Positions 39,671-49,561 of a stretch of DNA of 64,000 nt are shown one piece after another (position 1 is the stretch's first letter; each line of letters opens with the position of its first letter). The position numbers and the translations under genes are program-made. Below the pieces are notes generated by a model. The model worked only from the letters and a program-made list of their open reading frames with translations. It searched no databases and was not told the DNA's origin. Source of the DNA: Saprospiraceae bacterium (GTDB lineage Bacteria; Bacteroidota; Bacteroidia; Chitinophagales; Saprospiraceae); contig JBGAWQ010000014.1 in assembly GCA_044227555.1 (NCBI GenBank), forward strand, positions 12,206-76,205, read 5' to 3'.

Positions 39671-40108
39671 ATGAATGTATTTGATTCCATACGCGTCGTT
39701 GTCTACAGGTTCCATGAAAAGGGACTGGAAATCTTTCTGGTCAATAGTGGCCTGGAAGAGGAAAACTGGCGTATCCCTTTTTCAGATATTGCCAAGTACC
39801 CCGTCAATGAGTTGACGATCGGGGATCATTTTATCTCGCTGGAGGGCGATGTCAATCCGGATGGTTCAACCAGCATCATCTGTGCTATCGAAGGCGACTG
39901 GCACGACATTCCATCTATCCGCAAGTTGATCAAGGAAGATATACGGTTGGTTTCAACCAAAATCGATAAGTACATCATGCCTGAACTGGAGAAAGGCACC
40001 TACTTTGCCATCAAGGAAGCTTTCAAGAAAGTCATGCCTAATGAATACAAGGCACTGCATGAATTGAAGGACATCCTTCTGCACCGAAACATGCTTAAAA
40101 ACATATAA
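39671..40108 (+). CDS. Hypothetical protein (weak NUDIX-fold-like N-terminus without a Nudix box)
   Basis: IRVVVYRFHEKGLEIFLVN resembles the first strands of Nudix proteins, but no GX5EX7REUXEEXGU box is present. Confidence 0.4.
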   Translation: MNVFDSIRVVVYRFHEKGLEIFLVNSGLEEENWRIPFSDIAKYPVNELTIGDHFISLEGDVNPDGSTSIICAIEGDWHDIPSIRKLIKEDIRLVSTKIDKYIMPELEKGTYFAIKEAFKKVMPNEYKALHELKDILLHRNMLKNI

Positions 40109-40113
40109 AAAAA

Positions 40114-40139
40114 GGGTGGCCATCAGCCACCCTTTTTTT
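40114..40139. terminator. Bidirectional intrinsic terminator between convergent genes
   Basis: gggtggc-catca-gccaccc flanked by an A run and a 7-T run. Confidence 0.85.
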
Positions 40140-40140
40140 A

Positions 40141-40776
40141 TTACTTGTTGGGCTGCGGAGTGATCCGCAGATAAGGCTTGATATGTTTCGCGCCTTTCGG
40201 AAACTTAGCCGGGATATCTGTGTCCGGTACAGAAGGCAGGATGACGACATCTTCTCCATCCACCCAGTTGGCCGGTGTAGCCACGCTGTGATAGGCGGTG
40301 AGTTGTAAGGAGTCAATCACGCGAAGGATCTCTGTAAAGTTTCTTCCGGTGCTGGCCGGATACGTCAGGGTCAGTTTAACCTTCTTGTCTGGGCCGATGA
40401 TGAATACGCTGCGAACCGTTGTTTTTTCGGTAGCATTCGGATGGATCATATCATACAGCACAGCCACTTTTTTGTCTTCGTCCGCGATGATCGGGAAGTC
40501 AACCGTGGTGTGCTGGGTTTCGTTGATGTCCTTGATCCATCGGCCGTGGGATTCCGCACCATCCACACTGAGGGCGAGAACCTTGACGTTGCGTTTGGCA
40601 AATTCATTTTTCAGTTTTGCGGTCATTCCAAGTTCCGTCGTGCAGACAGGAGTGAAATCCGCGGGATGGGAAAAGAGCAAGCCCCAGGCGTCGCCGAGGT
40701 ACTGATAGAAATCAATAGGGCCTTCGCTGGTATCAGCTTGAAAATTGGGGGCGATATCGCCGAGTCGGATTGACAT
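40141..40776 (-). CDS. 1-Cys peroxiredoxin (Prx6 type)
   Basis: WGLLFSHPADFTPVCTTEL peroxidatic-Cys motif, 211 aa. Confidence 0.92.
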   Translation of the reverse strand: MSIRLGDIAPNFQADTSEGPIDFYQYLGDAWGLLFSHPADFTPVCTTELGMTAKLKNEFAKRNVKVLALSVDGAESHGRWIKDINETQHTTVDFPIIADEDKKVAVLYDMIHPNATEKTTVRSVFIIGPDKKVKLTLTYPASTGRNFTEILRVIDSLQLTAYHSVATPANWVDGEDVVILPSVPDTDIPAKFPKGAKHIKPYLRITPQPNK

Positions 40777-40964: not shown

Positions 40965-42137
40965 TCAGTATTTGGGTATGCTTGGGTCGATTTCTTTGGC
41001 CCAGGCGATGATACCGCCTTCGAGGTTGTACAGATCGGTCAATCCTGCTTCCGTGCGGAGGCGTTGGATGACATCTCTTGATCTGATGCCGGATTTACAC
41101 AGAAAGACAACGTCTTTGTTTCGTGATATGCGGTCGACCTGTTGCATGATCTCTCCTTTGGGGATCAGGGTGCCTCCGATATTGGCGATGGCATATTCAT
41201 GAGGTTCGCGGACATCGATGAGTTGGAAGTCTTTTCCGTTTCGGATCCATTCGTGCAGGGTGGAAACGCTGATCTGATCTTCATGATTTGATGCATGTTT
41301 TGCAGGCAGGCCGCAGAAAAATTCGTAATCAATGAGTGATGTTTGTGTAGGATGTGTTCCGGTCAATGGATTGTCAGGATCCTTGCTGAGTTTGAAGATT
41401 CTGGTTGAAAAGGAAGCGGCGTCAAACTGAAACAGCCGGCCTGCGAGAGGGTCTCCTACTCCGGAAATGACTTTAATCACTTCATTGGCCTGGAGACTGC
41501 CCAGGATGCCCGGGAGGACACCGATCACTCCGCCTTCGGCGCAACTTGGCACCAGACCCGGCGGAGGGGGTGTGGGAAACAAGTCCCGGTAATTGGGTCC
41601 GCGGGAGCCATCGGGATATTGGTAATTGAAAACGCTGGCTTGTCCTTCGAAGCGGAAGATAGAGGCGAATACGTTGACTTTGCCGGCCAGAACACAGGCA
41701 TCGTTGACGAGGTAGCGCGTTTGAAAATTATCAGTACCATCGGCAACGACATCAAAGCGTGAAATGATATCCAGGGCGTTGGAGCTATCTAATTTGACCG
41801 GAAAGACTTCGAAGTTGACATGGGGGTTGAGGGCTTGAAGTCTTTCACGGGCGGCATCCACTTTAGGTCTCCCCACATCCCTGGTGGTAAACAGGACCTG
41901 GCGTTGGAGGTTGCTGGTGTCCACCACGTCAAAGTCAACGATGCCGATCGTTCCGACTCCTGCGGCCGTCAGATAGAGTAATACCGGGGCACCCAGGCCA
42001 CCGGTGCCGATCACCAGTACACGGGCTTGTTTAAGTTTTTTCTGTCCTTCCAGATTGAATTCCGGCAGGATCAGGTGTCGGCTGTAGCGTTCGAGTTCTT
42101 CCTTACTCAGGATGACTTCTTCCAATGAGTTTTGCAT
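40965..42137 (-). CDS. ThiF/MoeB-type E1-like adenylyltransferase with C-terminal rhodanese domain (MoeZ/MoeBR-like)
   Basis: RYSRHLILPEF, VIGTGGLGAP and the C-terminal rhodanese loop FLCKSGIRS. ATG at 42137 chosen. Confidence 0.88.
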   Translation of the reverse strand: MQNSLEEVILSKEELERYSRHLILPEFNLEGQKKLKQARVLVIGTGGLGAPVLLYLTAAGVGTIGIVDFDVVDTSNLQRQVLFTTRDVGRPKVDAARERLQALNPHVNFEVFPVKLDSSNALDIISRFDVVADGTDNFQTRYLVNDACVLAGKVNVFASIFRFEGQASVFNYQYPDGSRGPNYRDLFPTPPPPGLVPSCAEGGVIGVLPGILGSLQANEVIKVISGVGDPLAGRLFQFDAASFSTRIFKLSKDPDNPLTGTHPTQTSLIDYEFFCGLPAKHASNHEDQISVSTLHEWIRNGKDFQLIDVREPHEYAIANIGGTLIPKGEIMQQVDRISRNKDVVFLCKSGIRSRDVIQRLRTEAGLTDLYNLEGGIIAWAKEIDPSIPKY

Positions 42138-42150
42138 TTGACCTATGAAT

Positions 42151-42429
42151 TTACAGTGAACCGCCGGCAATAGCGGGAATTATGCTCAGTTCGTCCCCGG
42201 CATGGAGTGGTGTGGCCAATCCTTCTTTTTCACGGATATCGTTTTCGCCGAGATAGATCCGAACGTGTTTTCGGAGCAGCTCTGTCTCGTCATAGATGTA
42301 CGGAACCAGCCCGGGATGGATAGTGGTCAGTGATCTGACGGCACCAGCTACATCAGCAGCCTGGACCTGAACTTTGGATTGTTCGCCGGCAAAGCGACGG
42401 AGTGGGGTCGGAATGAAAATGGTAATCAT
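42151..42429 (-). CDS. MoaD/ThiS-family ubiquitin-like sulfur-carrier protein (CysO-like), C-terminus GG followed by Ser-Leu
   Basis: 92 aa ending ..GDELSIIPAIAGGSL. Located between the JAMM and E1-like genes. Confidence 0.8.
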   Translation of the reverse strand: MITIFIPTPLRRFAGEQSKVQVQAADVAGAVRSLTTIHPGLVPYIYDETELLRKHVRIYLGENDIREKEGLATPLHAGDELSIIPAIAGGSL

Positions 42430-42489
42430 AGCGTATTGTTTTTATTAGGTTAATTTATGAAGAGCTTATTGTGTCCAATCATCAATAGC

Positions 42490-42550
42490 CCATTATGCCT
42501 CTTTAGCCTCTTTTGCCCCTTTCCCCTAAAGGGGGAATAGGTGATTTGCC
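42490..42550 (+). repeat. Partial copy of the dispersed repeat / G-A-rich word family inside the operon spacer
   Basis: tagcctcttttgcccctttCCCCtaaaGGGGgaatagg, with hairpin CCCC-TAAA-GGGG at 42524-42535. Confidence 0.55.
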
Positions 42551-42626
42551 AAGGTTATTTATGGTGCTTTTCATGTAGTGACTCATTATTCTGTTCTTTG
42601 CGTTCCATTAGTACTTAACCATCGAA

Positions 42627-43064
42627 TTAGTTGCTTATTCTTGAATCTTTAGTTACTGTAAATATCTCTTCGGCCAATTTTCCATCCAGGAGTCGGAAAC
42701 TTCGCGTTACTGTCATATGACCGCCCTGGATCGAATGGATGAAATAGGAAAAGAAAGGTTGCGCGTATTCGAGGTCATGGACCGAGGGAATGGCGGGATG
42801 GTCCGGATGCGAGTGATAGATGCCGAGGAGTTGTTTGTCGGATTGCAGGGCCAATTTTTCCGCACGCATGTAGTCCAGGGGATCGATGACAAATCGTCTC
42901 CGCAAATTTTCGGTCGAGCGGTTTTCTACTTCATAATGAGAAGTGATATGGCGATGGCCGATCGCTTGGGTGCCCAGCAGAAATCCGCAGGCTTCATGCG
43001 GGTAAGCGGATTCGAGATGTTTTTGGATCTGACGAAGGGTCTGATGATGAATGGAGGTGCTCAT
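42627..43064 (-). CDS. JAMM/MPN+ metalloprotease (Mec+/QbsD-like)
   Basis: YPHEACGFLLG and HSHPDHPAIPSVHD fit the E..HxHx7Sx2D JAMM motif. ATGA overlap with the upstream cysteine synthase stop. Confidence 0.88.
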   Translation of the reverse strand: MSTSIHHQTLRQIQKHLESAYPHEACGFLLGTQAIGHRHITSHYEVENRSTENLRRRFVIDPLDYMRAEKLALQSDKQLLGIYHSHPDHPAIPSVHDLEYAQPFFSYFIHSIQGGHMTVTRSFRLLDGKLAEEIFTVTKDSRISN

Positions 43065-43987
43065 ATGCCGAATATTTCTTTTCGTACTTCATGATATCTG
43101 TCGAGTGTGTCTGCGAGTGTAGTAACGATGTTGCCCCGGTCTAATGTTGAGGCTATGGTATGTGCACCGATCAGATTGGCAGCGCCGGAGGGTGAAATGT
43201 ATATGCCCTCATGGGCTGCTATGGCGCGGATCATATCTGGTACTTCGGCAGCGTCGATGGTCAGGTTCTGATCGGCCAGTGAGGGGTCATAGATAGCCGG
43301 AATATGATGGGCGGTCTCAAGATGTTTCCAGCCTTCGAGGGGGTGGAAGGGATGATCTGGTTGTAGCGAGATCGTGAGGACATTGCCGAGTTCCTTCAAT
43401 CGTCTTGACGTACCGGTAAACGTTCCGGTGGTGCCCAGGCCTGCAACAAAATGAGTCACTTGTCCATTCGTTTGAGACCAGATTTCTTCAGCGGTAGTGA
43501 AGTAGTGGGCTTGCCAGTTAGCTTCATTTGAATATTGGTCCGCGAAAAAATATCGGTCGGGATGGGTCTTAAATAAATCCTTAGCCACGTCCTGCGCACC
43601 ATCTGTGCCTTCGAGGGGAGAGGTGAGGATGAGTTCCGCGCCAAGGGATTTCAATAAACGTTGGCGTTCTGATGAGGCATTGGAGGGCAGACAGATGACG
43701 GGGCGCCATCCTTTGGTTTGGAGGAGGGTTGCATAGGCTATTGCTGTATTGCCGCTGGAAGCATCCAGTAGTTGATTGCCTGCATGTAGTCTTCCGGATT
43801 GGATAGCTCTGGAGATGATGGCATAAGCTGCCCTGGCTTTCACACTGCCGCCGGGTTGTTGCCATTCGGCCTTGGCCCAGATTTTTACGCGGTCTGTGCT
43901 CAGGCTCTCGATCAGCAATAATGGGGTGTTGCCTACCTCAGGAAGGGTTGCTGTCGTTTTAGGTCTGTGCAGTGTTTGTGTTGGCAT
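43061..43987 (-). CDS. PLP-dependent cysteine synthase (CysM-like, probably carrier-thiocarboxylate dependent)
   Basis: GNTPLLLIESL, PGGSVKARAAY (PLP lysine), SSGNTAIAYA and GLGTTGTFTG motifs. The ATG at 43987 is preferred to the TTG at 44029, which lies inside a terminator hairpin. Confidence 0.85.
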   Translation of the reverse strand: MPTQTLHRPKTTATLPEVGNTPLLLIESLSTDRVKIWAKAEWQQPGGSVKARAAYAIISRAIQSGRLHAGNQLLDASSGNTAIAYATLLQTKGWRPVICLPSNASSERQRLLKSLGAELILTSPLEGTDGAQDVAKDLFKTHPDRYFFADQYSNEANWQAHYFTTAEEIWSQTNGQVTHFVAGLGTTGTFTGTSRRLKELGNVLTISLQPDHPFHPLEGWKHLETAHHIPAIYDPSLADQNLTIDAAEVPDMIRAIAAHEGIYISPSGAANLIGAHTIASTLDRGNIVTTLADTLDRYHEVRKEIFGI

Positions 43988-44014
43988 TGGATTCGTGATT
44001 AGATGGATAAAATG

Positions 44015-44050
44015 AAAAAAGCCTTTCAATCCGGATGAACTGAAAGGCTT
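44015..44050 (-). terminator. Intrinsic terminator inside the operon leader (attenuator)
   Basis: Minus strand: AAGCCUUUCA-12 nt loop-UGAAAGGCUU followed by UUUUUU, ending 27 nt before the cysteine synthase ATG. No minus-strand gene ends upstream of it. Confidence 0.65.
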
Positions 44051-44089
44051 TGTCCTATATGGTTTGGTATACTATAGTACAATCTCAGG

Positions 44090-44158
44090 TCAACCCGGGG
44101 GTTGAGCACAACAACAGCAACAGCAGTTGGTATAGATTGTACAAGTCATATTTTTCAT
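44090..44158 (-). CDS. Cys-rich leader peptide, 22 aa: MKNMTCTIYTNCCCCCCAQPPG
   Basis: ATG..TGA ORF read by hand, with six consecutive Cys codons TGC TGT TGC TGT TGT TGT at 44125-44108. It sits between a promoter-like motif and the leader terminator. Confidence 0.6.
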   Translation of the reverse strand: MKNMTCTIYTNCCCCCCAQPPG

Positions 44159-44167
44159 AAATCCTGA

Positions 44168-44199
44168 CAAATATATGGGTGTTTATTCCGAAATGTCAA
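44168..44199 (-). promoter_or_regulatory. Candidate promoter of the leader and cysteine operon
   Basis: Minus strand: TTGACA-N18-TATATTTG (TAnnTTTG match), ending 9 nt before the leader ATG. Confidence 0.45.
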
Positions 44200-44258
44200 G
44201 CACAAGGTTCAAATTTGTGCCCTGACAATCTTTATAACAACCGAATCGACCAAAAGTT

Positions 44259-45188
44259 ATGCCAATCTCAGCAACCCATTTCAACTTATCGGGGCAGACC
44301 GGATTTTACCGGGGCAAGGTGAGGGATGTATATTACGTAGATGACCTGATGGTCGCTGTGGCTACAGATCGTATTTCCGCATTCGATCATATCCTGCCAC
44401 GCCCGATACCTTATAAGGGCCAGGTGCTCAATCAGCTTGCCGGATTTTTTCTGGATGCCACTAAGGATATCGTGCCTAACTGGAAGAAGTCGATGCCGCA
44501 TCCTAATGTAACGATCGGGGTGTTGTGTGAACCGATTCGTATCGAGATGGTGATTCGCGGATATCTTGCCGGTCATGCCCTCCGGGAGTATAAATCAGGT
44601 AAGCGGTTGTTGTGTGGCGAACCTATGTTGGATGGCATGGCAGACAATGAAGCTTTTCCTCAGCCCATCATTACTCCGGCGACTAAAGCCGATACCGGTC
44701 ATGATGTGGATATTTCGGGTGAAGAAATTGTGAAGCAGGGGTTATTGCCTGCAGCGGTGTATGAGGAGATGGCCAGAATCACCAGGGCTTTGTTTCAGCG
44801 AGGCACGGAGATGGCCGCGCGTCGTGGTTTGATCCTGGTGGATACCAAGTATGAGTTTGGATGGTATCGGGATGAGCTATATATCATTGATGAAGTGCAT
44901 ACCCCGGACAGCAGCCGGTACTGGTATGCCGATCGTTATGCCCAGAATCAGTTAGAGGGCAAGCCTCAGGAGCAATTATCGAAGGAGTTTGTACGCGAGT
45001 GGTTGATGTCAAAAGGATTTCAGGGGCTTGAGGGGCAGCAGATGCCGGTGATGGATGATGCCTTTGTCGAACTGGTCAGCAATCGGTACATCCATCTTTA
45101 TGAACAGATGACCGGCAAGGATTTTGAAAAAGCTCCTGATGATGAGGACACCGTGGTCCAGGCGATTGAAAAATCGTTGAGACGGTAG
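44259..45188 (+). CDS. purC: Phosphoribosylaminoimidazole-succinocarboxamide (SAICAR) synthase
   Basis: GKVRDVY, TDRISAFD and LILVDTKYEFG motifs. Confidence 0.95.
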   Translation: MPISATHFNLSGQTGFYRGKVRDVYYVDDLMVAVATDRISAFDHILPRPIPYKGQVLNQLAGFFLDATKDIVPNWKKSMPHPNVTIGVLCEPIRIEMVIRGYLAGHALREYKSGKRLLCGEPMLDGMADNEAFPQPIITPATKADTGHDVDISGEEIVKQGLLPAAVYEEMARITRALFQRGTEMAARRGLILVDTKYEFGWYRDELYIIDEVHTPDSSRYWYADRYAQNQLEGKPQEQLSKEFVREWLMSKGFQGLEGQQMPVMDDAFVELVSNRYIHLYEQMTGKDFEKAPDDEDTVVQAIEKSLRR

Positions 45189-45209
45189 GGCGTTAAATCA
45201 TAGCGTGCA

Positions 45210-46424
45210 TTAGCGCTCTAACAATTTTCCCAACGTACTGATTACGTAATCGATCTCTTCGGCGGTATTGTAAGCCGCAATGCCCATTCGGGTTACGCCT
45301 CCCTGGCCCATGAGGTCCATGACTTCTACTGCACGGATGGCATAGAAATGTCCATCCCAGGCGCAGATCCCATGTTCGGAGAGGTATTGGCAAATGGCTT
45401 CGGGTCGATGGTTTTCAACCGTGAAGGAGATCGTTGGGGCGCGTTGGGTTTCTTTCAATGGAGGGCCGTAGATATCTACGCCATCGAGGTCCCGGAGTCC
45501 GAGATATAGTTGTTGCGCCAGGCTTCGTTCGTACTTCTGGATGTGGGCCATGGCTGTGGTGATTTTGTCACGTTGGGTCTGACCTTCACCCATGGAGGCG
45601 ATAAAATCTACGGCGGCAGCTACGCCTGCCAGTGCGGCGTGGTGGAGAGTACCGCGTTCGATTTTATAAGGAGCAGTTTGGGTTTGGACCCTAAGGCGGT
45701 CGGTATCGAGGCGATCCAGTGCTCCGGGTCTTGAATACAGGATGCCTACATGAGGGCCGTAGAATTTGTACGCTGAGCACAGCAGGAAGTCGCAGTCGAT
45801 CTCGCGGACATCTGTGAGGAGGTGGGGTACGTAATGTACTCCATCCACCACGAGCAAGGCACCGACTTCATAGGCTAATTGTCGGACGCGATCGATTTCA
45901 TTGACGGTACCGAATATATTCGATGCCAGGCCGATGGCGATGACGCGGGTTTTTTCGCTGATTTTCTTTTCCAGGTCGGCGTAGTTGAGGCTGCCGTCTT
46001 CTTCGAGGAGTACTTCGCGAACGACGATGCCATGGCGACGTTGCTGGAGCCAGGGGCCGCGGTTGGCTTCGTGATCCAGTTGGGTGATGAGGATTTCATC
46101 GCCGGGTTGGAGGGAGCGGGCGATGGCGTTGGCCAGGACGAAATTGAGGCTTGTCATATTGGCTCCGAAGGAGATGGTTTCCGGGCCTTCCGCGCCCAGC
46201 AGGGCAGCGACCTGTGTGCGGGCGTGGTGGATGAGTTGATCAGTTTCCCGGGAGGTGACAAACTGGCCATGTGTATTGGCGTTGCTATGGCTGTATACAT
46301 TCACCATCGCGTCGATGACCGATTGGGGGACCTGGGTGCCAGCCGGGCCATCGAGGTGGAGGATGGGGCGGCCGTTGACGATTCTTTTCAGGGAAGGGAA
46401 CTGGCTGCGAATGGCATCATTCAT
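45210..46424 (-). CDS. Class-V aminotransferase fold, cysteine desulfurase-like PLP enzyme
   Basis: LDGPAGTQVP.., HEANRGPW and DFLLCSAYKFYGPHVG (PLP lysine in SAYK). Confidence 0.75.
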   Translation of the reverse strand: MNDAIRSQFPSLKRIVNGRPILHLDGPAGTQVPQSVIDAMVNVYSHSNANTHGQFVTSRETDQLIHHARTQVAALLGAEGPETISFGANMTSLNFVLANAIARSLQPGDEILITQLDHEANRGPWLQQRRHGIVVREVLLEEDGSLNYADLEKKISEKTRVIAIGLASNIFGTVNEIDRVRQLAYEVGALLVVDGVHYVPHLLTDVREIDCDFLLCSAYKFYGPHVGILYSRPGALDRLDTDRLRVQTQTAPYKIERGTLHHAALAGVAAAVDFIASMGEGQTQRDKITTAMAHIQKYERSLAQQLYLGLRDLDGVDIYGPPLKETQRAPTISFTVENHRPEAICQYLSEHGICAWDGHFYAIRAVEVMDLMGQGGVTRMGIAAYNTAEEIDYVISTLGKLLER

Positions 46425-46807: not shown

Positions 46808-47172
46808 GGGGCTGACAGGAATCGACAGTAAATGTATCGTGTCAGTAAGCATGCCGGGGGATGATGGTTTACCCCGTTATCAAATAGTCATCGACCAATA
46901 ATTGGCGAAACACGTTTCGCATTGGCTGCCTAATTCCAGGAATTAGTATGCCTTTATGCTTCCGGTTTGATCTCTGCTACAAAACCGTGCGGCATTCAGA
47001 AATGCAGAATAAGCTGAGGGGATGTCCTGACCCAACGCCGACAACTTCAGGGAACCGGGTGAGGCCGCGTTGTTACAGTACCTTGTCTCATCCTAAATCA
47101 GATCTGTAACTAAGCATGTAGAAAGCTGATGTGAGCTTTATCTGGACGGGGGTTCAATTCCCCCCAGCTCCA
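46808..47172 (+). ncRNA. ssrA: tmRNA (SsrA), tag reading frame GETRFALAA-stop
   Basis: 5' GGGGCTGACAGGAATCGACAG. Tag ORF ggc gaa aca cgt ttc gca ttg gct gcc taa (46904-46933). 3' end GGACGGGGGTTCAATTCCCCCCAGCTCCA with a tRNA-Ala-like acceptor and T-arm. Confidence 0.92.
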
Positions 47173-47175
47173 CAA

Positions 47176-47608: not shown

Positions 47609-49561
47609 GTGCCAAAGAAAGCCAGGAAATCCACACCAAAAGATTCTCCGCAACTGGTAAAAAAGGCAAGGGTGCCATCCACTCATACTGGAGGATGGAT
47701 CAGTGCTCTGCTGTTTGCCATTGCCGCCGGAGCATGCTCTTATGTATTGTCCCCGGTACTTGCTTATGCTGATCAGCAGGATACGTTGTCGAAAGGACTC
47801 TTGATTCTTTTGTGCGCGATAGTTGGATTCATTGGAGAAACTTCTTTTTTTAGAAGATATATCAGTTCCATTTCTGTTTGGATTCTGGCGCTGACCATCT
47901 TGCAACTCCTGGCCAATCTGAGCCTGTTGTATAGTTGGTTCGAATCAAATCCTGTTTTGCTATTCTTCACCAGAGATTTGACGATACCTATTGGAGTAGC
48001 CTGGTTTTTTATTCTTCGACACGGCACTACGGCTACAACTCTGCCCATAGCGCCCAATAGTTATAGGTTCAAAGAGGTATTCAATTCCATGGCTACAAGA
48101 GTAGTTGCCTTGATTGCGCTGGCTGTAGCAACAGGTCTTTTCTTTTACCGGCTTGGCTACTTTGATATCTGGGAAGATGAAAACCTGGTCATCAATGCGG
48201 CGGTAGGGGTGATGCAGCAAGGTCTGGCGTACTTCAAAGAAGGATATGACCGCGCTGCGCTGCATACTTTGATTTGTGCCGGTGTATTTGAGATGTTTGG
48301 TGTCTCAGAATATACCGCACGGATACCTTCGGCGATTTTCGGACTGGTGTTTGTAGCCGGCAGTTTGTATGTATTTGCAAGATGGTATGGCATCGCCTGG
48401 TTGGCCATTTTGATTCCACTGGTCTGCCTCATGAATGACCGCTTCCTGATTTTGTTCCGGTACATGCGGATGTACGCTTTGCTCATTCCTCTTTTTCTGG
48501 GCGGTGTGTACCTGATCCATCGTACACTCACTAAATGGCAAGAGGATCAATTTTCCCTTACTGCAGGATCGTCCCGAAAGCAATTGATCTATTTGTTATT
48601 GGGGTCAATGTTGTGCCTTCCATTGTTGGCGCACGTGCATAAATTGTCGATGGTCTTACTTCCGGTTTTTGCAAGCTATCTGGTGTATATGACCATTCAG
48701 CACCCGACTCGAAAACAATGGACCTTCCTTGGGATATGCGCAGCCGCAGGGGTTTTGCTTCTTCTCCTGACGTTTGTAGTTGAACTGGGGCCTTTGAAAA
48801 TGTTCAGGCAGGCGGCTAGCCGTATACTCTCTCCGCACGATCCCAAGCCAGCCTATTTTCAGTATCTGTTTGAGAATGGCTTGCCGCAATACAACACTAT
48901 CATGTTCTTGATTGCAGGCCTGGGTCTTCTGGGTTCAAAGGTGATGAGATCATTGAAGTCCTTGCTGTTGTTGCAATATCTGCTCATCATCATTCCATTG
49001 GTGCTCATGGTTTACCTCGCTGATGACCAGGGCAGGGATTACCGGTATATTGCCCATATTGTTCCTTTCGTGGTGAGTGTGTTACTGTTGACGGGGTATG
49101 CTATTGGGAAGACCTTGTGGCCCCGAAAAGGGGTTTGGGTACCGGTGTCCATATTCTTTATTTCAACGCTGCAGTTGTGGCACGATGCGGATCGGGTGTA
49201 TATCAAGCATCCCTGGGCGCCTGGTTATTCTGAAGTATATAGTACGCTCAAGGCAAATTTCCATCCTGACGATGCTTTATTTGTTCAAAACGTAAAAACA
49301 TTTTATCTGGATCCTGAGCAACTTGCCGGATCCCATTTTCATAAAGTACCCAAAAAGCGATTGTATACGCTGGATCAGTTTATAGCTGATGTCCGATCAG
49401 AAAAGCATGGATGGGTGATGTGGGAACTCCACAAATCGTATCAATGGCAGCCTGAAATCCTGGATTATATTTATGCGCGGTTTAAGCCCTATCATAGCCA
49501 GAACCTCGATGACCTTGGCGTGGAATTATTTTATTTTGACGAAACCATGCTGGGCCAATAA
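47609..49561 (+). CDS. Polytopic membrane glycosyltransferase, GT-C fold (GT39/ArnT/PMT-like)
   Basis: More than 12 hydrophobic helices. FFYRLGYFDIWEDENLVINAA resembles the first-loop DE motif of GT39/ArnT enzymes. Start uncertain: GTG at 47609 (Lys-rich tail like the next gene) or ATG at 48089. Confidence 0.6.
   Translation: MPKKARKSTPKDSPQLVKKARVPSTHTGGWISALLFAIAAGACSYVLSPVLAYADQQDTLSKGLLILLCAIVGFIGETSFFRRYISSISVWILALTILQLLANLSLLYSWFESNPVLLFFTRDLTIPIGVAWFFILRHGTTATTLPIAPNSYRFKEVFNSMATRVVALIALAVATGLFFYRLGYFDIWEDENLVINAAVGVMQQGLAYFKEGYDRAALHTLICAGVFEMFGVSEYTARIPSAIFGLVFVAGSLYVFARWYGIAWLAILIPLVCLMNDRFLILFRYMRMYALLIPLFLGGVYLIHRTLTKWQEDQFSLTAGSSRKQLIYLLLGSMLCLPLLAHVHKLSMVLLPVFASYLVYMTIQHPTRKQWTFLGICAAAGVLLLLLTFVVELGPLKMFRQAASRILSPHDPKPAYFQYLFENGLPQYNTIMFLIAGLGLLGSKVMRSLKSLLLLQYLLIIIPLVLMVYLADDQGRDYRYIAHIVPFVVSVLLLTGYAIGKTLWPRKGVWVPVSIFFISTLQLWHDADRVYIKHPWAPGYSEVYSTLKANFHPDDALFVQNVKTFYLDPEQLAGSHFHKVPKKRLYTLDQFIADVRSEKHGWVMWELHKSYQWQPEILDYIYARFKPYHSQNLDDLGVELFYFDETMLGQ

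Follow-up and report, generated by a model that had tools for sequence, protein, structure and literature searches.

A window of 64,000 nucleotides (nt) from a Saprospiraceae bacterium (contig JBGAWQ010000014.1, positions 12,206 to 76,205; by the window we mean this whole stretch) carries on its minus strand, directly 5' of a cysM-type cysteine synthase gene, a short open reading frame (ORF) with six consecutive cysteine (Cys) codons, followed by an intrinsic terminator. We conclude that this element is very probably a leader-peptide transcription attenuator that senses charged tRNA-Cys and controls a CysO-type operon of cysM, JAMM, ThiS-like and E1-rhodanese genes, as a preliminary description of the window had proposed. 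The parts of the element are conserved in relatives, and two of its helices (P1 and P2) and the terminator covary among them. The strongest argument for function is that the same parts list recurs, with unrelated sequences, in front of cysM in other lineages.

The leader ORF and its recurrence upstream of cysM

The promoter, the leader ORF with its six-Cys run, the hairpin at the stop codon and the 9-base-pair (bp) helix that brackets the run, all claimed in the preliminary description, can be read on the minus strand (Table 1). The ORF consists of the codons ATG AAA AAT ATG ACT TGT ACA ATC TAT ACC AAC TGC TGT TGC TGT TGT TGT GCT CAA CCC CCG GGT TGA; its second ATG, at 44149, is an alternative in-frame start, and a single further Cys codon lies at 44143-41. 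No other run of at least five TGY codons occurs in the 64-kb window. A Cys-codon run on the plus strand (48963-48974) was considered as a second leader and rejected, since it reads out-of-frame Leu codons inside a 650-amino-acid (aa) ORF.

For comparison we scanned one genome per species and fetched 80 cysM loci, amounting to 950 kb counting both strands. A homologous poly-Cys ORF with the same terminator is present in 10/10 Saprospiraceae and Chitinophagales loci with upstream DNA; in close relatives, whose CysM proteins are 66-76% identical to that of the window and place it in or near the Saprospiraceae, the ORF lies ~125-130 nt upstream of cysM. All 14 runs of at least four TGY codons in the 80 loci are found no more than 600 nt upstream of a cysM homologue and on its strand. 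CCC runs in Desulfobacterales (L065, L070, L077) were rejected as leaders, being without a start codon.

The set of homologues comprises 20 distinct members. Ten of these stem from metagenome assemblies: two were obtained through a metagenome pattern scan with CTCARCCNYCGGGTTGA, in which real leaders account for 2/120 among the matches listed, and eight through contig look-ups (L203-L206, L208, L209, with L210 and L211 identical to L209, and L212). Leader ORFs that end in CCxCCCCAQPPG and a stop codon occur in 19 loci besides the window, the consensus peptide in the relatives being M K N M .. C C x C C C C A Q P P G stop, with runs of 3-7 Cys codons. The reading frame is kept in all 20 members (alignment A2): TGT and TGC interchange freely, the part from the Cys run to the stop varies in length by a single indel, of exactly 3 nt, and the stop codon, UGA or UAG, falls within the 3' arm of P2 in every member. 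Every relative with upstream DNA has the Cys run, followed by an in-frame stop and by the terminator, which agrees with the preliminary description.

In one member, L008, a repeat insertion displaces the leader, so that the ORF lies 444 nt and the Cys run 420 nt upstream of cysM. The insertion of ~300 nt, between the leader terminator and cysM (L008:2746-2953), is made of 2-3 tandem copies of a 91-93-nt unit that are 85% identical.

Non-homologous poly-Cys ORFs, each with its own hairpin and U-tract, precede cysM in several further lineages. They include a cultured species with a complete genome, Adhaeribacter swui (CP055156.1; L201:3810-3985; leader peptide MNKQFQINHAACCCCCACPWGSLDAAAC); two Bacteroidota-like metagenome contigs (L202, MNISTHLHNACCCCCCCSV..., and L207, MNHIFNTACCCCCCIHL...); Pyrinomonadaceae (L015, L021 and L028, with ..RCCCCK.. 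and similar peptides); Rhodothermales (L023, ..ACCCACCCCQ..); and Chloroflexota (L050, L055). The leader ORF of Balneolales L019 is present with no obvious terminator. Downstream of the leader, L015, L019, L021 and L023 again have JAB and ThiS/ThiF-rhodanese genes.

Two observations accompany these leaders. The Adhaeribacter swui leader precedes cysM-JAB-ThiS-ThiF, at ~190-20 nt upstream of the cysM gene (3407648-3408580 of CP055156.1), and genes of sulfate activation (APS kinase, PAPS reductase, CysQ-like) adjoin. Upstream of cysM in further Chloroflexota and Acidobacteriaceae (L029, L032, L039, L014) there are also weaker short ORFs that are rich in Cys but have interrupted runs, such as MHQFCMCMCCMCGKQERSILT and ...MMNHCICCWRGL.

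RNA helices and the terminator

The 181-nt leader has a minimum free energy (MFE) of -52.1 kcal/mol, compared with -32.4 +/- 3.7 for dinucleotide shuffles (z = -5.4). Its MFE fold contains P1, P2 and the terminator and leaves the cysM start region unpaired.

P1 is a perfect 9-bp helix between GUACAAUCU (44142-34) and AGAUUGUAC (44085-77) that brackets the Cys run, its 5' arm lying 8 nt upstream of the run in the window. The two arms covary across ~10 sequence classes: CACUCUU/GGGAGUG in the main clade, UGCUUCU/GGGAGCA in L203, GCUUCU/AGAAGU in L012 and L107, and UCUUCCAG/CUGGAAGA in L209. Because P1 slips by 1-3 nt between clades (the window, L208), covariation by alignment column is only partly usable here. 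We therefore used an alignment-free test, in which the ORF segment upstream of the Cys run is paired with the post-stop 16-mer of its own class or with those of other classes. Cognate duplexes have a mean energy of -11.7 kcal/mol, as opposed to -8.1 for non-cognate ones, and 0/20000 permutations are as low.

P2 is formed by arms at 44105-00 and 44095-90, and 96.7% of its cells are paired in the 20-member alignment. Compensatory changes from A-U to G-C occur at synonymous sites in L206, L209 and L212. In L208 a compensatory change from C-G to A-U alters the end of the peptide to AQHLC-stop: PPG is lost and the hairpin is retained. Thus the RNA hairpin, and not only the PPG peptide, is under selection.

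The tail Q-P-P-G-stop (codons CAA CCC CCG GGT in the window, 44093-44104) is nevertheless kept in 17/20 members despite synonymous changes, CAA to CAG and GGU to GGC. Pro-Pro-Gly is a slow-translating motif, and a role of the tail at the peptide level is possible, though not required. A constraint on the AQPPG peptide alone was rejected as the sole explanation, since L208 keeps the hairpin with a different tail; it may act as an additional constraint.

Between P1 and the terminator, a small variable hairpin (CUAUA/UAUAG) is found in most relatives; it is poorly alignable, with 68.8% of cells paired. ACAA (44052-44049) extends into the base of the terminator 5' arm; by pairing with UUGU it can lengthen the proposed antiterminator.

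The terminator stem has 15 pairs (44051-44037 with 44032-18) and a hairpin energy of -18.4 kcal/mol. The preliminary description had recognised this hairpin and its U-tract as a terminator, and in that respect it was right; the stem of 10 bp that it gave was too short, and what it took for the loop part of the third segment is largely stem. The cysM ATG at 43987 is 22 nt past the end of the U-tract and 27 nt past the first U-run. In 20 sequences 100% of terminator cells are paired; one pair changes by compensation (A-U to G-C in 3 sequences), there are several G-U/A-U switches, and the UUUUUU of the window corresponds to at least five U in the other members. No gene ends near the hairpin (44051-44018) on either strand, and hence, as had been claimed, it is not a gene-end terminator.

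We assessed the terminator state as a whole with the MAFFT alignment A2 of the 20 members, the structure consisting of P1, P2, the spacer hairpin and the terminator. In this state 91.2% of cells are paired, compared with 24-56% when the partners are slid by 1-3 columns, and in 8 pairs both partners change. The score for covariation is 0.159, as against 0.125 +/- 0.009 for shuffled alignments, of which 0/500 reach the observed value. By helix, the compensatory pairs number three in P1, two in P2 and one in the terminator; the bracketing helix, the hairpin at the stop codon and the terminator, all of which the preliminary description had put forward, thus have support from compensatory changes. 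A search of 42000-46000 against Rfam (cmscan, E up to 10) finds no family at the leader; its only matches are two chance snoRNA hits elsewhere in the region.

The hairpin would be coding sequence if the synthase began at TTG 44029, a possibility raised in the preliminary description. Homologous synthases do not share this extension: nearly throughout the best 120 of 7,884 homologues the length is 305-313 aa, and the proteins align from residue 1 of the product of ATG 43987. We therefore rejected the N-terminal extension, and the leader hairpin is non-coding. Some database CysM entries (P0014, P0021, P0057, P0080, P0085) are 349-351 aa long instead of ~307. From their lengths, the start has probably been over-extended through terminator and leader, which would be a systematic mis-annotation caused by the attenuator.

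Table 1. Positions in the window of the leader, its RNA elements, the downstream genes and the promoter
Feature	Position	Strand	Basis or remark
-33-like promoter element TTGACA	44194..44199	-	direct reading; 11/12 sigma-70-like match
-7 box TATATTTG (Bacteroidota sigma-A consensus TAnnTTTG)	44168..44175	-	direct reading
Leader ORF MKNMTCTIYTNCCCCCCAQPPG and stop, 22 codons	44090..44158	-	ATG 44158, TGA 44092-44090
P1 5' arm GUACAAUCU	44134..44142	-	inside ORF, upstream of Cys run; MFE pairing with 44085-44077
Six consecutive Cys codons, proposed sensor of charged tRNA-Cys	44108..44125	-	direct reading
P2 hairpin UCAACC-CCCG-GGUUGA	44090..44105	-	stop codon in 3' arm
Segment 2 CCGGGUUGACCUGAGAUUGUAC, proposed antiterminator 5' strand	44077..44098	-	P2 3' arm, linker and P1 3' arm
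Spacer with small variable hairpin CUAUA/UAUAG	44052..44076	-	MFE fold
Intrinsic terminator, stem AAAGCCUUUCAGUUC / GGAUUGAAAGGCUUU, loop AUCC, U-tract UUUUUCAUUUU	44009..44051	-	predicted fold
cysM-type cysteine synthase (PALP), first regulated gene, 308 aa	43061..43987	-	Pfam PF00291, E = 1.5e-55
Prok-JAB/JAMM protein	42627..43064	-	Pfam
ThiS-like carrier	42151..42429	-	Pfam
ThiF+rhodanese E1	40965..42170	-	Pfam
1-Cys peroxiredoxin gene	40141..40776	-	Pfam
Operon-end hairpin terminator, 17-bp, bidirectional-looking	40105..40141	-	terminator prediction

The proposed switch and other explanations

In the mechanism that we propose, transcription would start ~5 nt upstream of the leader ATG, and a ribosome would translate the 22-codon ORF while RNA polymerase heads towards the terminator. 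If Cys-tRNA is plentiful, the ribosome would reach the UGA inside P2 and cover segment 2 (GGGUUGACCUGAGA...); with segment 2 covered, the terminator 5' arm would be free, the 15-bp terminator would form and transcription would end 22 nt before cysM. If there is no ribosome on the leader, P1 and P2 would sequester segment 2, and termination would follow likewise. If Cys-tRNA is scarce, the ribosome would stall at the first Cys codons, masking the 5' arms of P1 and P2 and freeing segment 2. While the 3' arm of the terminator is still to be transcribed, segment 2 would pair with the 5' arm, which is rich in pyrimidines (CUUUCAGUUC...CCGG), and the polymerase would read through. On this scheme the ORF would be translated and the operon would respond to cysteine.

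Segment 2 is near-invariant in the relatives, including the linker that is unpaired in the terminator state. This ACU linker, between the 3' arms of P2 and P1, completes GAACUG, the perfect complement of CAGUUC. We folded transcripts ended before the terminator 3' arm, forcing a 28-nt ribosome footprint to remain unpaired, for 13 sequences. In free RNA, P1 and P2 form and 11/13 sequences have no antiterminator pairs, the window having 7. With a ribosome at the stop codon, all 13 sequences have none; with a Cys codon in the ribosomal A site, all 13 have 9-15. The three-state ribosome logic of the preliminary description is thus reproduced by these folds. In the stalled state the predicted pairs join segment 2 (CCGGGUUGAACUGGGAG...; CCGGGUUGACCUGAGA in the window) to the terminator 5' arm and loop (CUUUCAGUUC..CCGG), often lengthened by GUGU/ACAC (UUGU/ACAA in the window). 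Since the P1 5' arm is 8 nt upstream of the run, the effective stall positions in the window are the first Cys codons.

Other measures agree in part. The potential for antiterminator pairing extends to 93.9% of cells, compared with 23-62% for slid partners. For the consensus sequence (L001) the duplex of segment 2 with the third segment has an energy of -16.7 kcal/mol, a value that 6/500 shuffles equal. This simple duplex test understated the antiterminator, because the folds add a second helix (UUGU/ACAA or GUGU/ACAC). As a fuller measure we took the energy gained when the terminator core may pair upstream: in 18/20 sequences the stalled state gains more than the stop state, and compared with shuffled spacers the gain is matched by 8/100 in the window and by 2-4/100 in L206, L208, L209 and L212. 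Even so, the fuller test remains mixed.

Several results count against the proposed switch, and it is important to set them out together. In the main clade the energy gain is not above that of shuffled spacers (41-81/100). The window's own duplex, at -10.7 kcal/mol, is weaker than those of most relatives and is equalled by 51/500 shuffles; that of L204 (-8.9 kcal/mol, 342/500) is no better than chance. Covariation of the antiterminator in the 20-member alignment does not exceed shuffles, 144/500 of which reach the score; there is essentially none, because the terminator arm is invariant. The sole compensatory pair is in L006, where CCG becomes UCG as the loop CCGG becomes CCGA, and L007 has a loop change without compensation. 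When the independent lineages are folded with masking, the states do not separate cleanly. Short leaders are uncommon, at 3.7-5.5% of Bacteroidota mRNAs, and the predicted untranslated region (UTR) here is of ~5 nt. Finally, to our knowledge, coupling of transcription and translation has not been demonstrated in Bacteroidota. Weighing these folds and shuffles, we incline slightly towards a specific antiterminator pairing as the likely state of the stalled leader. For the antiterminator of the preliminary description, the pairing potential and the behaviour under masking hold up, covariation is absent, and support from shuffles is patchy.

The weakness of the antiterminator bears directly on another possibility, which we consider improbable: that Cys-dependent stalling exerts its effect on translation initiation, on Rho-dependent polarity or on the stability of the mRNA, in the manner of the mycobacterial poly-Cys short ORFs, with the hairpin as a structural or stability element. 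The sole Cys leader to have been dissected experimentally is translational (10.1101/834739), and actinobacterial Cys leaders are without terminators (PMC1262725). The hairpin itself speaks for termination, however: a 15-bp, GC-containing stem with a directly following U-tract is invariant in 20 members, and analogous units stand in independent lineages. Moreover, with 27 nt between its end and the ATG, the hairpin leaves the start region uncovered, and Bacteroidota largely lack Shine-Dalgarno sites that could be sequestered (PMC9723704).

If, instead, the conserved product were the peptide, the short ORF would encode a functional Cys-rich micropeptide (metal- or sulfur-binding, or the precursor of a modified peptide), the hairpin would be its terminator, and cysM would have its own promoter. 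The amino-acid-level conservation of AQPPG-stop in 17/20 members, though codons change, fits such a role, and an independent role as a small protein was left open by Canestrari et al. (10.1101/834739). We nonetheless hold it to be very unlikely: beyond the Cys run, the independent lineages have peptides with nothing in common; the stretch that encodes the conserved tail is also a palindromic hairpin, which L208 keeps by compensation with the tail AQHLC-stop; only 22 nt, with no -7 box, separate the U-tract from the cysM ATG; and the unit is always directly 5' of cysM on the same strand. To a protein- or ligand-binding RNA element (riboswitch-like or a regulator's target), with the ORF secondary, we give hardly any credence: conservation of segment 2 and the terminator far exceeds that of the CysM protein (66-76% identity) and extends to nucleotides unpaired in the terminator state, but the start, the frame, synonymous Cys-codon variation and the in-frame stop are all kept, Cys-codon runs recur in unrelated leaders of several phyla, 42000-46000 has no Rfam match in cmscan, and the dual pairing duty of segment 2 is enough for its invariance.

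The operon, its promoter and related leaders

The gene order cysM-JAB-ThiS-ThiF is the same in L201-L212, L015, L019, L021 and L023. The set as a whole matches the CysM/CysO/Mec/MoeZ protein-thiocarboxylate pathway of mycobacteria (PMC11361707): in M. tuberculosis, CysM-CysO-Mec-MoeZ likewise place together a PALP synthase, a JAMM/Prok-JAB protein, a ThiS-like carrier and a ThiF+rhodanese E1. The window synthase is nearer to the E. coli and Salmonella CysM structures (E = 7e-56) than to M. tuberculosis CysM (3DKI/3DWG, E = 9e-41). In Pyrinomonadaceae L015:4566-6023 and Balneolales L019:4416-5939 the ThiS-like carrier and the ThiF+rhodanese E1 form a single protein (485-507 aa), with the carrier at its N-terminus. 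The peroxiredoxin gene of the window would lie on the same transcript as the cysM operon; a peroxiredoxin gene also adjoins the operon in L203 and L202. This adjacency hints at a link of the pathway to oxidative stress, as reported for the M. tuberculosis operon.

Upstream of the leader, the TTGACA element (44199-44194) and the TATATTTG box (44175-44168) are separated by a spacer of 18 nt. Both are near-invariant in alignment A1, the former as TTGAYA in the relatives. The Bacteroidota -7 box occupies -12 to -5 (PMC9723704), and from its position here we predict a transcription start at ~44163. The predicted 5' UTR is then 5 nt for ATG 44158 and 14 nt for ATG 44149; only the first ATG is present in 5 members and only the second in L008. 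The gap between the -7 box and the leader ATG is 9 nt in 13/20 members.

The gene divergent from the leader is purC (44259-45188, plus strand). In the intergenic region a palindrome CAAATTTG (44210-44217), within GCACAAATTTGAACC (44220-44206), is its own reverse complement and fits nAnnTTTG; it is near-invariant in Saprospiraceae intergenic regions, ~35 nt upstream of the leader -7 box. By its sequence and place, it could be the -7 box of a divergent purC promoter or a shared regulator site. A tmRNA gene (46808-47173, plus strand; tag peptide GETRFALAA) lies 2.6 kb from the attenuator, probably by coincidence.

The arrangement closely resembles that of the enterobacterial trp, his, leu, thr, ilv and pheA attenuators. 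These share with it a short ORF with tandem codons for the end product, a stop placed such that a ribosome terminating there sits on the antiterminator strand, a helix further upstream in which this strand is sequestered without translation, and a terminator of hairpin and U-tract just before the first structural gene. The differences are that cysteine would be sensed here and that the operon is of the CysO-type sulfur-carrier kind, with no sequence homology; in addition, the host is a member of the Bacteroidota, with a TAnnTTTG promoter, no Shine-Dalgarno site and a predicted 5' UTR of ~5 nt.

The preliminary description named no characterised Cys-codon attenuator on a CysO-type operon; Cys-codon attenuators as such are not unprecedented, since Cys leaders have been predicted in Actinobacteria (PMC1262725), work in Mycobacterium smegmatis (10.1101/834739) and have a counterpart in a cysS motif (PMC8632094). 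In M. smegmatis, polycysteine leaderless short ORFs (Ms5788A etc.) act translationally by freeing a sequestered ribosome-binding site (Canestrari et al., Mol Microbiol 2020, 10.1101/834739). Common to both systems are a poly-Cys short ORF at the transcript 5' end (predicted here) of cysteine-metabolism operons, stalling at Cys codons, shown or proposed, that relieves repression and independent evolution at several loci. The mycobacterial case, however, has no intrinsic terminator, its ribosome-binding site being sequestered in an RNA duplex, whereas here hairpin and U-tract are the conserved output element; the phylum differs, there is no homology, and the predicted 5' UTR of ~5 nt is short but not zero.

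For Mycobacterium, Propionibacterium acnes and Bifidobacterium longum, Seliverstov et al. (2005, PMC1262725) predicted Cys leader peptides in front of cys/cbs operons. These candidates too have Cys-codon runs near the stop and precede cysteine-biosynthesis genes, but they were found in Actinobacteria alone and have no conserved terminator hairpin, and their authors suggested Rho dependence. In Rhodobacterales the uORFC-8-2 motif precedes cysS (Brewer et al. 2021, PMC8632094). It is, like the present element, a predicted ribosome-mediated attenuator with tandem Cys codons inside a stem and a subsequent terminator with a U-run; it differs in having only two Cys codons, in controlling cysteinyl-tRNA synthetase, in its alphaproteobacterial host and in its unrelated sequence. 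Within the Bacteroidota, leader peptides have been described for trp, hisG and ilvE (PMC9723704 supplement), which have the same presumed mechanism and promoter type and sense other amino acids. We found no Cys leader from this phylum in the literature searched, coverage of which was incomplete, so that "undescribed" is provisional.

The mechanism is textbook leader-peptide attenuation; its value is in the clean architecture, the breadth across phyla and the ribosome-polymerase coupling that it makes testable in Bacteroidota. A wider reading, which we put forward as possible and rather doubtful, is that a poly-Cys ORF with a terminator is a recurrent, independently evolved switch of the CysO pathway in at least 4-5 phyla (Bacteroidota, Rhodothermota, Balneolota, Acidobacteriota, Chloroflexota). 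The Saprospiraceae version would then add near-leaderless initiation, with its fixed 9-nt gap from -7 box to ATG, and a QPPG-stop tail that, besides encoding P2, may act as a peptide: as a Pro-Pro-Gly motif of slow translation or slow release it would keep the ribosome sitting on the antiterminator strand and make the decision sharper.

If the attenuator is real, it would be the first cysteine-specific leader-peptide attenuator with the full classical architecture (ORF, anti-antiterminator, antiterminator, terminator) on a cysteine-biosynthesis operon, and the first Cys leader reported in Bacteroidota. For annotation it supplies a rule, namely to look upstream of cysM for an unannotated short ORF and terminator, across which several CysM entries in databases have probably been extended in error. 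The idea can be tested directly on the independent versions from several phyla, among them that of the cultured Adhaeribacter swui. For the biology of these bacteria, attenuation would give a simple cis-acting explanation of how the oxygen-tolerant CysO-type pathway is induced as cysteine, and hence charged tRNA-Cys, falls, and it would imply that the leading ribosome and RNA polymerase are closely coupled in a phylum without Shine-Dalgarno-led initiation.

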